Below, one piece after another: positions 40,931 through 49,612 of a stretch of DNA of 64,000 nt. The DNA comes from Phenylobacterium sp. (GTDB lineage: Bacteria; Pseudomonadota; Alphaproteobacteria; Caulobacterales; Caulobacteraceae). The stretch covers positions 697,787-761,786 of the forward strand of contig NZ_JBKBUH010000001.1 in NCBI RefSeq assembly GCF_046290725.1, in the 5' to 3' direction. A program made the position numbers and the translations under genes. The notes below the pieces were generated by a model, which saw only the letters and a list, made by a program, of their open reading frames with translations, was not told where the DNA came from and made no database searches. Position 1 is the stretch's first letter; every line of letters begins with the position of its first letter.

Positions 40931-40969
40931 TCCCTCTTCCTCCCCGGCGAAGCGGGGTAGGAAGAGGGA
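40931..40969. repeat. REP-like palindrome / bidirectional hairpin
   Basis: TCCCTCTTCCT-CCCCGGCGAAGCGGGGT-AGGAAGAGGGA; shares the GCGAAGCGGGG core with the 5944 and 57127 copies. Confidence 0.65.
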
Positions 40970-40986
40970 GGAAAAGAGGATCGCGC

Positions 40987-44382: not shown

Positions 44383-44597
44383 GGGCACCCCGGACTTGAA
44401 ACCGGGCGCACCTTCGTCCCCGAAAGCCCGGCTTGTCGAGAGGCCAGGTTCGATTTCGCGCTGCAGCATCGGGAGAACGCAGTTCCGGCGCTCCCCAAAC
44501 CGGGTTAGAGGGGAAAATCTGCCATTTTCCGGACCGAACGGCGCGGAAACCGTCCCTGCAGCGTTTCCCCGTTCGTCCACCTGGAGTCCCGAGCCTC

Positions 44598-45986
44598 ATG
44601 ACGAGCGATCCCGCACCGCCGCCGGCGAAATCCGCCCTGGACCTGATCGGCCACACTCCGATGGTGGAGCTGCAAGGCTTCGACACCGGACCCTGCCGCC
44701 TCTTCGTGAAGCTGGAGAGCGCTAATCCCGGCGGCTCCATCAAGGACCGTATCGCCCGTTCGATGATCGAGGCCGCCGAGGCGGACGGTTCGCTGAAGCC
44801 CGGCGGGACCATCGTGGAGGCCACAGCGGGCAATACCGGCCTGGGCCTGGCCCAAGTGGGCGTGCTGAAGGGCTACCGCATCCTGCTGGTGGTGCCCGAC
44901 AAGATGAGCCGGGAAAAGATCCAGCACCTGCGGGCCATGGGCGTCGACGTGCGCATCACCCGGTCCGATGTGGGCAAGGGCCATCCGGACTACTATCAGG
45001 ACATGGCTGAGCGCCTGGCGCGCGACATTCCCGGCGCAGTCTACATCAACCAGTTTTCGAACCCGGCCAATCCCGCGGCGCACGCGGCGACGACCGGGCC
45101 GGAGATCCTGGAGCAAATGGGCGGCGACGTGGACGCGGTGGTGGTGGGAGTCGGTTCCGGCGGCACCCTGACGGGCCTTGGCCGCTTCTTCGCCCAGGCC
45201 TCGCCGAAAACGAAGATGGTGCTGGCCGACCCTGAAGGCTCGATCCTGGCGCCCCTGATCAACACCGGAAAGATGATCCAGCCGGGTTCGTGGATCGTGG
45301 AGGGGATCGGCGAGGACTTCATCCCCGACAACTGCGACCTGTCCTTCGTCGCCAAGGCCTATTCGATCCCCGACGCCGAGAGCGTGGCGGCCGCCCGCGA
45401 GCTCCTGACCAAGGCCGGCGTGCTGGGCGGATCCTCCACCGGCTGTCTGCTGGCCGCAGCCCTGCGCTATTGCCGGGAGCAGACGGAACCTCAGCGCGTG
45501 GTGACTCTGGTCTGCGATACGGGCGCCAAGTACCTGTCCAAGGTCTATAACGACAGCTGGCTGGCCGAGCAGGGCCTGACCAAGCGCGAGCTGCACGGCG
45601 ACCTGCGCGACCTGATCGCCCGTTCGGCATCGGAAGGGGGCGCCGTCACCGTGGGGCCCGACGACACCCTGCTCACCGCCTACAACCGCATGCGCCAGGC
45701 CGATGTGAGCCAGCTGCCGGTGATGGACGACGGGCGCTTGATCGGACTGATCGACGAAAGCGATCTCCTGGAGGCGGTAGAGGATTCCAAGCCCGACAAG
45801 CGCTTCGCCCAGAAGGTCAGCGCCGCCATGACCGCCAAGCTCGAGACCCTGCAGGCGGATGCGCCGCTGGACGCCCTGCTGCCGGTCTTCGAGAAGGACC
45901 AGGTGGCGATCGTACTGGACGGCAAGGAGTTCCTGGGCCTGATCACCCGGATTGATCTCATCAACTATCTGAGGCGCGCAGCGTGA
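44598..45986 (+). CDS. Cystathionine beta-synthase (PLP domain plus CBS pair)
   Basis: KLESANPGGSIKDR, EATAGNTG, GVGSGGT, CDTGAKYLSK; C-terminal CBS domains. Confidence 0.9.
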   Translation: MTSDPAPPPAKSALDLIGHTPMVELQGFDTGPCRLFVKLESANPGGSIKDRIARSMIEAAEADGSLKPGGTIVEATAGNTGLGLAQVGVLKGYRILLVVPDKMSREKIQHLRAMGVDVRITRSDVGKGHPDYYQDMAERLARDIPGAVYINQFSNPANPAAHAATTGPEILEQMGGDVDAVVVGVGSGGTLTGLGRFFAQASPKTKMVLADPEGSILAPLINTGKMIQPGSWIVEGIGEDFIPDNCDLSFVAKAYSIPDAESVAAARELLTKAGVLGGSSTGCLLAAALRYCREQTEPQRVVTLVCDTGAKYLSKVYNDSWLAEQGLTKRELHGDLRDLIARSASEGGAVTVGPDDTLLTAYNRMRQADVSQLPVMDDGRLIGLIDESDLLEAVEDSKPDKRFAQKVSAAMTAKLETLQADAPLDALLPVFEKDQVAIVLDGKEFLGLITRIDLINYLRRAA

Positions 45987-47164
45987 GCGACGGAAACCCC
46001 GCCATGGGCAAGAACCGCCTGGAATTCGCCACCCGCGCCATCCACGGCGGCCAGAGCCACGACCCCACCACGGGGGCGGTGATGCCGCCGATCTACGCCA
46101 CCTCCACCTACGCCCAGACGAGCCCCGGCGAGCACAAGGGCTTTGAATATTCCCGCAGCCAGAACCCCACCCGCTTCGCCTTCGAGCGGGCGGTCGCGGA
46201 CCTGGAAAGCGGGACGCGCGGCTACGCCTTCGCCTCCGGCCTGGCGGCCATCTCGACCTTTCTGGAGGTGCTGGACTCAGGCGCCCATGTGATCGCCAGC
46301 GAAGACCTCTATGGCGGCTCGTTCCGGCTGTTCGACAAGGTGCGCCGGCGCTCGGCGGGCCTTGAGTTCAGCTTCGTGGACCTGGCCGACATCGCCGCGG
46401 TGGAGGCGGCCATCCGGCCCAACACGCGGATGATCTGGGTGGAGACCCCCACCAATCCGCTGCTACGCCTGGCAGACCTGGAGGCGCTGGCCGATCTCGC
46501 CCGGCGGCGCGGCCTGATCGCGGCGGCGGACAACACCTTCGCCAGCCCCTATTGCCAGCGGCCGCTGGAACTGGGCTTCGACCTCGTCATGCATTCCACC
46601 ACCAAGTACCTGTCGGGCCACTCCGACATCGTCGGCGGAGCCCTGGTGGTGGGCGATAACAAGGAGCTCGCCGATCAGGTGGCGTTCCTGCAGAACGCCG
46701 TGGGAGCCGTGGCTTCGCCCTTTGACTCCTTCCTGGCCCTGCGTGGGGTGAAGACGCTCGCCCTGCGCATGCAGCGGCATTGCGAGAACGGCTTGAGGAT
46801 CGCCCAGTGGCTGGAGAACCGCCCCGACGTGGCGCGGGTGATCTATCCGGGGCTCCCCAGCCATCCGCAGCATGAGTTGGCCAGGCGCCAGATGACCGGC
46901 GGCTTCGGCGGCATGATCACCGCGGTGCTGGACCGCGATCTGGCCGGAACCAAGCGGATGCTGGAGCGCACGCGTCTGTTTACGCTGGCCGAGAGCCTGG
47001 GCGGGGTGGAAAGCCTGATCGAACATCCGGCGATCATGACCCACGCCTCGATCCCGGCGGAGACGCGGGCGCGGATCGGCATCGCCGATGGCCTGATCCG
47101 CCTCTCGGTGGGGGTGGAGGACGCAGGCGACCTGATCGCCGACCTGGAGCAGGCGCTGGGGTGA
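45983..47164 (+). CDS. Cystathionine gamma-lyase/synthase
   Basis: [52 protein letters not shown]. Confidence 0.93.
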
Positions 47165-47190
47165 GGATGGGGAGCGAGGCGCTCGACTCG

Positions 47191-47209
47191 CCCTCTCCCT
47201 CGGGAGAGG
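47191..47209. repeat. Degenerate REP-like palindrome
   Basis: CCTCTCCC-TC-GGGAGAGG, 27 bp after the lyase stop. Confidence 0.5.
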
Positions 47210-47267
47210 TGGAGCGCGGAAGGGCCGCCCTCATTTTTAACTAATCTGTCAAAACTTTTGTCGGCCA

Positions 47268-47392
47268 AAAATTTGGCCCGCTGCGGGGGATATTCGCAGC
47301 GGGCCTCATTTTGAGCAGTCGCTCTTGTTGAGCGGGCGTTTCCTCCCCGAAACGCCGGAGACTGTCGGACTTGGTGGCCGTCATGTCTCTCG
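47268..47392 (-). ncRNA. Candidate small RNA with four consecutive hairpins
   Basis: Stems at about 47358-47389, 47335-47356 (8 bp perfect), 47320-47334 and 47275-47305 (11 bp perfect, followed by AAAUUUUU on minus); strand inferred. Confidence 0.55.
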
Positions 47393-47414
47393 CCAGATGA
47401 GAAAACGGTAATTT

Positions 47415-47428
47415 TTGACCCGAGTCAA
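47415..47428. promoter_or_regulatory. FNR/FixK-type palindrome TTGAC-N4-GTCAA containing a GANTC site
   Basis: TTGACCCGAGTCAA perfect dyad. Confidence 0.5.
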
Positions 47429-47501
47429 CGGGCCGAATTGGGCGTACAGGGTAAATTCTGATCAGATTTCCGCGATCTTCGCGTTTCGCGTGTGAAACAG
47501 C

Positions 47502-48479
47502 CTAGGTTTTGACGCTTCTGTCAAAATTCAGCCGCCCCGCAAGGGCGGCCGAGGGCGCGCAGGCGGTCTCATAGACGAAATCCGGACGCGAGACGGTCAC
47601 CGGCCCCAGGCCGGCCGCCGCCAAGGCCATGGAGGCCTCGGCGATTCGGTGTGCGGGCACCAGCAGGCCGTTGGGGCGGCGGATGGCGCCTTCGGAGATC
47701 AGCCGCTCCACCACCGGCTCCTCCCGCGGATCGGGCGGCCAGGCCAGGGTGGCGGTCTCGTGAGCGGCGGCGCGGGCCTCGACGATGCGCAGGAACCGGT
47801 CGGCGGCGGCGAACTGGGCCGCCGACCAGCCGGCGCGCAGGGCGGCCGCCAGCTGGGCCTGGCTGCGCAGGATCGTCCCGTCGGAGATCACCTTCAGGCC
47901 GTTGGCGGCCAAGGTCGCGCCCGTGGTGGTGATATCGACCACGATCTCGGCCATGCCGGCGGCCGGCGCGCCCTCCGTGGCGCCGCCGGACTCGGCGATG
48001 CGGTAGTCGGAAAGCCCGTGCCGGGCGAAGAAGTCCCGCGTCTGGACCACATATTTGGTGGCGACCCGCATCCGGCGGCCGGTCCGCGCGAGCATGTCGT
48101 GCGCCACCTCTTCCAGGTCGGCCATGGCGTCGACATCGATCCAGCTGCGCGGAGCGGCGACCACCAGGTCGGCGCGGCCGAAGCCGAGCGCGCGCAGCAG
48201 CAGCACGCGCGCCTCCAGGTCCCCGCCACGCTCGCGCAGCAGGTCTTCGCCGGTGACGCCCAGATGCGCTTCTCCGGCGTCCAGGGCCTCGGCGATGTCG
48301 CCGGCCGACAACAGGCGCACCTGCACGCCCGTCACGCCCTTCAGCTCGGCCATGTAGCCGCGGGCGCCGCCGGCCACGGAGAGCTTCAATCCGCAGTCGG
48401 AGAGCCAAGCCTCCACCTGTTCCTTCAACCTGCCCTTCGAAGGGACGGCGAGGATGAGAGGCGCGTCGGAACCGGTCAT
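47502..48479 (-). CDS. hisG: ATP phosphoribosyltransferase catalytic subunit
   Basis: AVPSKGRL, GVTGEDLL, VATKY, GATEGAP, DITTTGATLAANGLK. Confidence 0.95.
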   Translation of the reverse strand: MTGSDAPLILAVPSKGRLKEQVEAWLSDCGLKLSVAGGARGYMAELKGVTGVQVRLLSAGDIAEALDAGEAHLGVTGEDLLRERGGDLEARVLLLRALGFGRADLVVAAPRSWIDVDAMADLEEVAHDMLARTGRRMRVATKYVVQTRDFFARHGLSDYRIAESGGATEGAPAAGMAEIVVDITTTGATLAANGLKVISDGTILRSQAQLAAALRAGWSAAQFAAADRFLRIVEARAAAHETATLAWPPDPREEPVVERLISEGAIRRPNGLLVPAHRIAEASMALAAAGLGPVTVSRPDFVYETACAPSAALAGRLNFDRSVKT

Positions 48480-49612
48480 GCTTCGCCTCCCGCCCAGGCC
48501 CGCCAGGGCCGGACCATGCAACCCACCGCCCGCGCGCCGGTCGGGCCGCCCAGGCGCGCCGGCAAACCGTCATAGCGGCCGCCCACGGCCACCGGCCGCA
48601 GGGAGCCGAGCGCTTCGGAGCGGATCTCGAAGGTCAGGCCGTCGTAGTAATCGAAGGCGTGGCCGAGGGCTGTGGCGAACCGCAGGGCGCTTTCCGCAAC
48701 CCCCGCCTTCGCCAGGGCTTCGAGGCGGAGCTCCCAACCGGCCAGCGCGGCCTGCAGGGCCGGCGCCGCGCCAGCCATGCCGCGGATCCGGACGAAGGCC
48801 GCGGCCGGCGCATCCTCCACCGCCAGGAAGGTGCGGATCGCTTCGGCCTGTTCCCGCGTGAGCGCTGGCGCACGCGCGGCCTCGGCCCGACGGATCAGCC
48901 GCCCGGCGATGGCGGCGGGTCCCCGGCCGCCCACCGGCTCCACCCCGGCCAGAGCCCAGACTTCCGAAAGCACCTCGGCGGCCTCGCCCTCCGGCAGGCC
49001 CGCCAGCAGCTCCGCCAAGCGCCCGCCGCCCGCGGGCTCGGCGACGGCCTCGCCGGCGCGCGCCAGCTCCTCGGCCAGCAGGCGGGGACGCCCCGCCACC
49101 CGCTTCAGGCGCGCGGCCAGGGGCTCGGAGAGCTCCAGCGCGTCCACGAAGGCCCCAAACAGCGCCACGTCCCCCAGCCATAGAGCCAGGTCCTTGCGCC
49201 CGCCCGCCGCGGCCGAAGCCCAGGCCAGCGCCGCGATCTCAGCGTCGGCGTCGATGATCGAGGCGCCGGGCGCATCGAACCGTTCCAGCCCCAGCTGGCG
49301 GAACTCGTCGGGGAGATCCGCGCCGAGGGCCGCGCGGAACGCCTTGCCTTCGTAGAGATAGCGCCCGTCGGCCCGGCCGGCCTCCAGGTGCTGGCGCACG
49401 ATCGGCACGGTGAAGTCGGGCCGCAGGCAGGCCTCCTCCTCGCCCTGGGACTGGACCACGAACAGGCGCGACCGCACCGCCTCGCCGGCGAGTTCGAGCA
49501 GCAGGCCGAGCGGCTGCAGGATCGGGGCGTCCACGGCCTCCGCGCCTGCGGCCAGGAACGGCGCGCGAATGGCGGCCATAGGATCAGGCGGGACGAGCGG
49601 CTCGGCGCGCAT
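48476..49612 (-). CDS. hisZ: ATP phosphoribosyltransferase regulatory subunit
   Basis: LRPDFTVP, YLYEGKAFR, EFRQLGLE, DYYDGLTFE, GGRYD; lies between hisS and hisG. Confidence 0.9.
   Translation of the reverse strand: MRAEPLVPPDPMAAIRAPFLAAGAEAVDAPILQPLGLLLELAGEAVRSRLFVVQSQGEEEACLRPDFTVPIVRQHLEAGRADGRYLYEGKAFRAALGADLPDEFRQLGLERFDAPGASIIDADAEIAALAWASAAAGGRKDLALWLGDVALFGAFVDALELSEPLAARLKRVAGRPRLLAEELARAGEAVAEPAGGGRLAELLAGLPEGEAAEVLSEVWALAGVEPVGGRGPAAIAGRLIRRAEAARAPALTREQAEAIRTFLAVEDAPAAAFVRIRGMAGAAPALQAALAGWELRLEALAKAGVAESALRFATALGHAFDYYDGLTFEIRSEALGSLRPVAVGGRYDGLPARLGGPTGARAVGCMVRPWRAWAGGEA

Follow-up and report, generated by a model that had tools for sequence, protein, structure and literature searches.

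The intergenic region downstream of hisG in the Phenylobacterium genome analyzed here carries four closely spaced hairpins, and the question that this locus raises is whether these hairpins belong to a functional RNA, from which strand such an RNA would be transcribed, and what it may do in the cell. An initial annotation, which was made from the sequence alone, had proposed a small RNA candidate at this position. In the present study, we examined the window, by which we mean the whole 64-kb stretch of DNA that was analyzed, together with the 4.1-Mb assembly from which it was taken and the genomes of related bacteria. The genes that surround the hairpins, and the putative sRNA gene itself, are as follows.

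51123-49615, minus strand: hisS, upstream of hisZ
49612-48476, minus strand: hisZ, between hisS and hisG
48521-47502, minus strand: hisG, encoding ATP phosphoribosyltransferase (TIGR00070, E 3e-49)
47267..47393, minus strand: putative crfA sRNA gene, approximately 127 nt, placed by the Rfam RF01527 match and alignment
45983-47164, plus strand: Cys/Met PLP enzyme gene, convergent toward crfA
44433-45986, plus strand: cystathionine beta-synthase-like gene, convergent toward crfA

The position downstream of hisG that the initial annotation had given was borne out by the TIGR00070 match. The hisG gene is the last gene of hisS-hisZ-hisG and precedes crfA in the same orientation, with the hairpins following approximately 110 nt downstream. 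The nearest hisG loci among GTDB genomes were those of Phenylobacterium isolates and MAGs, with protein identities of up to 79%.

Identification of the RNA as CrfA

In a cmscan search against Rfam 15, the Caulobacter sRNA CrfA (RF01527) matched positions 47391-47264 on the minus strand with 64.6 bits (E 2.5e-10), well above the gathering score (GA) of 38 bits for this family. The match was full length, covering model positions 1-136 of 136, and CrfA was the sole Rfam family that reached its gathering score anywhere in the window; one copy was found in the 4.1-Mb assembly. Considering this match, the minus-strand segment 47393-47267 is very probably the Phenylobacterium ortholog of CrfA and, by homology, an Hfq-dependent sponge sRNA. 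The feature is already known as an sRNA, which is now seen in a new host genus, and its sponge mechanism has been published (October 2025). The transcript and its ends are projected from the experiments in C. crescentus: an alignment with the 5' end in that species gives the putative start, and the putative 3' end lies within the U-tract.

The initial annotation had suspected an ortholog of a known Caulobacter sRNA and had named a cmscan search against Rfam as the way to find out, and the full-length match above the threshold answers this in the affirmative. The two families that it had named, CC3510 and CC3513, gave no match at E <= 10 within positions 46000-49000, nor at the gathering score across the window, and its description of the RNA as poorly characterized is outdated because CrfA has now been characterized (PMC12559287). 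A 47-aa ORF on the minus strand (47241-47384) was rejected as a coding sequence since it had no Pfam match and the indels among its homologs were not multiples of three, a pattern that is incompatible with coding.

Secondary structure and transcribed strand

The structural elements of the RNA, read on the minus strand, are listed below.

47358..47389, minus strand: stem-loop 1, with GAGAC (47385-47389) and GUCUC (47358-47362) as the outer pairing and CGG/CCG as the inner pairing, within 47366-47380
47335..47356, minus strand: stem-loop 2, GGCGUUUC-GGGGAG-GAAACGCC
47334-47348, minus strand: putative sponge site GGGGAGGAAACGCCC, carried by stem-loop 2
47313..47334, minus strand: variable stem-loop 3 region, with two mutually exclusive hairpins
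47320-47334, minus strand: hairpin 3 in the version of the initial annotation, CGCUC-AACAA-GAGCG
47313-47324, minus strand: hairpin 3 in the Rfam version, GAGC-GACU-GCUC
47267..47305, minus strand: putative Rho-independent terminator, an 11-bp GC stem (47275-47305) followed by AAAUUUUU (47274-47267)

All four hairpins of the initial annotation were recovered in place on the minus strand. The minimum free energy (MFE) fold of this strand reproduced each of them at -65 kcal/mol, compared with -43.9 +/- 3.7 kcal/mol for 200 dinucleotide shuffles, none of which was as good (z = -5.8). The terminator stem-loop reads GGCCCGCUGCG-AAUAUCCCC-CGCAGCGGGCC (47305-47275, minus strand), with AAUAUCCCC as the loop. 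The third hairpin was present as it had been described; as the sole reading of this region, it did not stand, because it competes with the Rfam version, and the two alternatives, CGCUC/GAGCG and GAGC/GCUC, were about equally supported, each being paired in approximately 82% of cases across homologs.

The structure was further examined in an alignment of 109 crfA homologs (alignment A1). Standard pairs occupied 94.5% of the pair cells, against 47% or less in slid-partner controls, and 225 compensatory cells were observed versus 69 +/- 7 in shuffles. Covariation across Caulobacteraceae, which the initial annotation had proposed to look for, was evident in stems 1 and 4, where 14 of the 19 pairs carried compensatory changes (16 of 32 over the whole structure). 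In stem 1, these changes affected four of the five outer pairs and all three inner pairs; in the terminator stem, 100% of the cells were paired, and compensatory changes were found at 7 of the 11 pairs.

The plus strand had been considered in the initial annotation as an alternative, in which a functional RNA would expose CUCCCC as an anti-Shine-Dalgarno loop and use it in the manner of an alphaR8- or cuckoo-like seed. This strand also folds well (-72 kcal/mol, z = -4.6), which is expected of any set of hairpins. However, RF01527 matched the minus strand only, and the conserved promoter block and the U-tract both lie on that strand. Stems 1 and 4 also contain many G-U pairs, each of which would turn into a C-A mismatch if the plus strand were the RNA. 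Moreover, CUCCCC on the plus strand occurs only within a hairpin loop, whereas the alphaR8 seed UUUCCUCCCU is single-stranded, and the alphaR8/MmgR family (RF00519) gave no match at the crfA locus even at E <= 10. The Rfam match, the promoter block, the U-tract, and the G-U pairs exclude the idea of a plus-strand anti-Shine-Dalgarno seed, and we assign a negligible probability to a functional RNA on this strand. Transcription is assigned to the minus strand on account of how often G-U pairs occur, of the U-tract, and of the conserved block upstream.

The hairpin of the crfA terminator (47275-47305) likewise scores as a terminator when read on the plus strand, where TCATTTTGAG follows 13 pairs; this hairpin may be bidirectional and also serve the convergent Cys/Met PLP enzyme gene.

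Conservation and distribution

RF01527 was present as a single copy in 110 of 121 Caulobacteraceae genomes, representing 26 of 27 genera. Outside Caulobacteraceae, the same order yielded only four sub-threshold matches, all of which came from one genus, and the CrfA family is essentially restricted to Caulobacteraceae. We further compared 80 hisG loci from Phenylobacterium and its allies. The 22-nt core (GGCGUUUCGGGGAGGAAACGCC; also given as GGCGTTTCGGGGAGGAAACGCC) followed hisG on the hisG strand in 78 of them with two mismatches or fewer, and it was exact in 77; one of the two loci without the core was cut by a contig end. The locus of the culturable P. haematophilum DSM 21793 (L043) is almost identical to that of the window. 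The core lay 100-200 nt downstream of hisG in these Phenylobacterium-type loci. The hisG-crfA order was also found in Caulobacter (loci L002-L005) and several other genera, though not in every genus of Caulobacteraceae.

Conservation also extends beyond the terminator hairpin, a point on which the initial annotation had made the candidate depend. Stem-loop 2 is near-invariant, with single-base changes in only 2 of the 109 homologs. The loops of terminators are usually free to vary, and the AUCCCC loop of the crfA terminator was retained in 102 of the 109. This loop may engage in a kissing or self-masking contact, or it may act as a second site of pairing. In our calculations, 5 bp are possible between the AUCCCC loop (47286-47294, minus strand) and GGGGA in the loop of stem-loop 2 (-9.7 kcal/mol).

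These patterns bear on an alternative explanation, namely, that the hairpins have no function of their own and are merely the 3'UTR and terminator of hisS-hisZ-hisG, or a terminator that works in both directions and also serves the Cys/Met PLP enzyme gene. The hairpins do stand on the hisG strand, approximately 110 nt downstream of the gene without a strong intervening terminator, and their terminator scores on both strands. However, an invariant hairpin of 22 nt upstream is more than a mere terminator requires, crfA and its own conserved promoter block are kept in genera in which hisG does not adjoin, and transcripts have been mapped and phenotypes described for the family to which the element belongs (RF01527; PMC12559287). 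We therefore consider this explanation to be extremely unlikely and retain the reading as CrfA, according to which crfA would be transcribed independently, from its own putative promoter to its own Rho-independent terminator. Since no obvious terminator was recognized between hisG and crfA, part of CrfA could stem from read-through of hisSZG.

Pairing site and potential partner RNAs

Recent work has been reported on CrfA in C. crescentus, in which it acts as an Hfq-dependent sponge of four alphaR8-family sRNAs, SisA-D, and not directly on mRNAs (Vogt et al., 2025, Nat Commun, PMC12559287). Sponging runs via the G/A-rich stem-loop 2 during carbon starvation, and structure probing showed that G49-C63 of CrfA is protected by SisA-D; further evidence came from RIL-seq, compensatory mutations, Hfq dependence, and starvation phenotypes (PMC12559287). 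Upon carbon depletion, CrfA increased approximately six-fold within 10 min, SisA fell approximately 50-fold in a CrfA-dependent manner, and TonB-dependent receptor targets were de-repressed; the deletion of crfA resulted in poor growth under a fluctuating carbon supply (PMC12559287).

Stem-loop 2 of the window is letter-for-letter identical to the G49-C63 site of C. crescentus, and GGGGAGGAAA, the complement of the alphaR8 10-mer UUUCCUCCCU, lies within the invariant GGCGUUUCGGGGAGGAAACGCC. The initial annotation had suggested that the GGGGAG loop on the minus strand may sponge CCUCC-type or alpha-r8 sRNAs, and the same stem-loop is the one that has been shown experimentally to act as the sponge in C. 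crescentus (PMC12559287). The Phenylobacterium genome contains hfq. It also contains a canonical alphaR8/MmgR gene (G000:C6:1313728-1313801; RF00519, 54.9 bits), in which UUUCCUCCCU is accompanied by a terminator and, upstream, by a weak hairpin; several weaker alphaR8-like candidates were found elsewhere in the genome. The canonical gene provides a 14-nt perfect complement to stem-loop 2, and the predicted local duplex of CrfA and alphaR8 reached -34.9 kcal/mol versus -18.8 +/- 3.0 kcal/mol for shuffled controls. These energies were calculated with local segments and shuffled controls because full-length RNAduplex gave meaningless long duplexes. Members of the alphaR8 family typically adjoin a gene for N-formylglutamate amidohydrolase. 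Caulobacter sisA adjoins the FGase gene, whereas the canonical alphaR8 gene of the present genome does not, being located between typA/bipA and a gene for an AMP-binding enzyme (locus L124).

The longest complement of stem-loop 2 in the genome, apart from the antisense of crfA itself, was a 16-nt stretch, GGCGUUUCCUCCCCGA, in a terminator-bearing element (G000:C6:110885-110968, minus strand; locus L125) that stands directly behind the stop codon of a gene for a TonB-dependent receptor. This element scored 35 bits against RF00519, and its predicted duplex with CrfA was -43.4 kcal/mol versus approximately -19 +/- 3-4 kcal/mol for shuffled partners. It is a candidate either for an alphaR8-like sRNA derived from a 3'UTR or for a CrfA target. 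A 15-nt complement at G000:C6:835564-835578 had no terminator and a coding-like context.

The older view of CrfA is that of a classical trans-acting sRNA, which would pair with the 5'UTRs of mRNAs for TonB receptors and activate them. It derives from the 2010 direct-activator model for C. crescentus CrfA, as cited in PMC12559287, and the near-invariant, C-rich AUCCCC loop of the terminator could in principle pair with G-rich sites in mRNAs. However, RIL-seq in C. crescentus detected zero CrfA-mRNA chimeras, the reporter did not respond to CrfA in E. coli or when sisA-D were deleted, and M1, the diagnostic mutation, falls within the SisA-pairing site (PMC12559287). In the present genome, two complements of stem-loop 2 have an sRNA-like context, in that a terminator follows shortly after them, namely, the alphaR8 gene and the element in the 3'UTR of the TonB receptor gene. 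Direct activation of mRNAs by CrfA is, in our judgment, very unlikely here.

We take the sponge as the working explanation because of the RF01527 match, the identical site, and the presence of both Hfq and a candidate alphaR8 partner; family membership, a covarying structure, an invariant pairing site, and the occurrence of Hfq and complementary partner RNAs in this genome are shown by the present analysis. From the experiments in C. crescentus, we infer the induction by starvation, the Hfq dependence, and the sponge activity of the Phenylobacterium RNA. By this analogy, the exhaustion of carbon would induce crfA, and stem-loop 2 (GGGGAGGAAACGCCC) would then open and pair with the anti-Shine-Dalgarno seed (GGGCGUUUCCUCCCU) of alphaR8/MmgR-type sRNAs, which are represented by SisA-D in C. 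crescentus. The pairing, which would take place on Hfq, may lead to the decay of these alphaR8-type sRNAs, and this decay would de-repress their targets, such as TonB-dependent receptors, transporters, and metabolic genes.

As a separate observation, an exact alphaR8-type 10-mer, TTTCCTCCCT, occurs in the window at 40965-40974 (minus strand), right after the stop codon of a 1197-aa ORF (44580-40987, minus strand), in a hairpin, UCCCUCUUCC...GGAAGAGGGA, without a U-tract. Hairpins of a similar kind, CCCUCUCCC...GGGAGAGG, are found repeatedly, one of them at 47185-47210 after the Cys/Met PLP enzyme gene (~47190), and they may represent a dispersed repeat.

Putative promoter and flanking palindromes

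Regarding the transcriptional regulation of crfA, which was left "to be determined" by Vogt et al. (2025; PMC12559287), three further elements were found around the gene.

47400..47429, minus strand: conserved, putative crfA promoter region, with GTTGACT (47423-47429) as the putative -35 box and TTACCGTTTTCT (47400-47411) in the -10 region
47507..47526, no strand assigned: upstream palindrome TTTTGAC-AGAAGC-GTCAAAA, within the last 8 hisG codons, centered approximately 124 bp upstream of the putative transcription start site (TSS)
47235..47254, no strand assigned: downstream palindrome TTTTGAC-AGATTA-GTTAAAA, shortly beyond the 3' side of the terminator; the two copies are 272 bp apart

In 170 nt upstream of the core at 109 loci, the promoter consensus was GTTGAC(T/A)-N12-TTG(C/A)CGTTT, i.e., TTGAC-N16-CGTT, in which TTGAC was conserved at no less than 95% and TTG(C/A)CGTTT at 80-95%. 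A scan for sigma-70 promoters returned no match, and the -10 region of crfA is not canonical for sigma-70. The CGT of this region is reminiscent of ECF-type promoters. A palindrome over the -35 box, TTGACTCGGGTCAA, was rejected as a separate element as it was not conserved beyond close relatives.

When at least 9 of 10 half-site matches were demanded, the palindrome was found upstream at 92 and downstream at 77 of the 109 crfA loci (L002-L031 and L041-L119), including loci in Caulobacter and in genera without hisG synteny. A position weight matrix (PWM) built from the sites of other genomes ranked the two crfA sites first and second in the 4.1-Mb genome, with 33.7 bits for the upstream copy and 32.5 bits for the downstream copy; sites of 14 bits or more numbered 10 in the real genome versus 2 in a composition-preserving shuffle. 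The spacing between the two copies took only the values 230, 252-255, 260-263, 270-273, 279-283, 293, 302-304, and 313-315 bp, for which the best period was 10.4 bp (R = 0.67 for 23 unique values). For the interval between TTGAC of the -35 box and the upstream copy, the period was 10.7 bp (R = 0.70); in each case, none of 5000 random sets was as periodic.

The palindromes are conserved in sequence, rather than by covariation, and are phased with the DNA helix, and this combination points to the binding of a protein on one face of the DNA. A DNA loop that encloses the whole crfA gene is quite possible. The fuller proposal, in which a regulator would bind two TTTTGAC-N6-GTCAAAA operators, one approximately 85-155 bp upstream of the start and the other past the terminator, and would loop out crfA over a gene span of 250-315 bp, appears to us to be a reasonable possibility that falls slightly short of probable. 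The palindromes around crfA are the one new observation of the present study, and we regard them as a candidate looping operator. A full-text literature search did not find variants of TTGAC-N6-GTCAA; Landt 2008 and 2010 were outside its scope, and the 2010 paper may describe the repeats.

Perfect TTGAC-N6-GTCAA cores were no more common genome-wide than those of a reversed control, which suggests that any regulon is small; apart from the pair at crfA, no sites are conspicuous in the genome-wide counts of palindromes. The next-best sites in the genome form a cluster of three (27.3, 21.0, and 12.5 bits), which precedes a gene for a TonB-dependent receptor (G000:C12:65251-68175, minus strand; locus L121, 65187-68405), the 3'UTR of which contains a hairpin, CUAGAGG-UCCUCCC-CCUCUAG, with an anti-Shine-Dalgarno loop and a terminator. 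This arrangement hints that the receptor gene and crfA may form a small carbon-starvation regulon.

In another genus, a cluster of three palindromes (35.3, 23.7, and 14.3 bits; G060:C1:3224757-3225030, locus L122 4758-5030) precedes a gene for a 49-aa predicted membrane peptide (MSQTHPPGVSLGPHLVENIVLIGLGVVVGG...). When ORF translations were judged by eye, no transcription factor gene was recognized beside the lower-scoring PWM sites or beside crfA in the genera without hisG synteny, and no regulator gene was found beside the palindromes of the second locus in two other genomes. Two PWM sites with suggestive neighbors were set aside. One lies within an apparent nepR coding sequence, between ORFs that resemble phyR and an ECF sigma factor by their translations, and was treated as a chance match; the other, near a gene that looked like Crp/Fnr by eye, is a TTGAC-N4-GTCAA box of the FNR/FixK type with a different spacing.

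If true, looping between two operators would supply the transcriptional control of crfA that Vogt et al. (2025) left open. The conserved non-sigma-70 promoter and the two phased palindromes offer a modest and testable lead on the way in which crfA senses carbon starvation.

Comparison with known systems

The RutR box of E. coli, which is recognized by the TetR-family protein RutR, is TTGACCAnnTGGTCAA. It is the nearest look-alike of the crfA palindromes that is known to us, and it shares with them the 5-N6-5 arrangement and the TTGAC/GTCAA outer half-sites; however, the inner positions differ (here TTGACG-N4-CGTCAA, flanked by A/T-rich positions), and no RutR-like gene was linked to the crfA palindromes. 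We know of no RutR counterpart for paired and phased sites around an sRNA gene.

With respect to the mode of action, QrrX of Vibrio is an sRNA sponge of its sibling Qrr sRNAs (as cited in PMC12559287) and resembles CrfA as a dedicated sponge that inactivates sibling sRNAs via a shared seed, whereas the sequences and organisms are unrelated and the signal is quorum sensing for QrrX and carbon starvation for CrfA. The family that comprises alphaR8, MmgR, and SisA-D (RF00519 'suhB') is the partner family of CrfA; CrfA is not a member of it and bears the G/A-rich complement of its seed.

The closest relationship is that with CrfA of C. crescentus (RF01527; Landt et al., 2010; PMC12559287), with which the Phenylobacterium RNA shares the four-hairpin architecture, an identical 22-nt stem-loop 2, the AUCCCC loop of the terminator, the position downstream of hisG, and the single copy, as well as the promoter motif and the flanking palindromes. 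Stem-loops 1 and 3 differ in sequence from those of Caulobacter, with covarying stems, and this difference accounts for the lower model score (64.6 bits versus approximately 160 bits in Caulobacter). The RNA is approximately 127 nt long in Phenylobacterium and approximately 136 nt in Caulobacter, and the upstream palindrome is 20 bp, or two helical turns, nearer to the promoter in the former. This comparison shows which parts of CrfA are constrained in sequence, namely, the 22-nt stem-loop 2 and the AUCCCC loop of the terminator; in the other stems, it is only the structure that is constrained.
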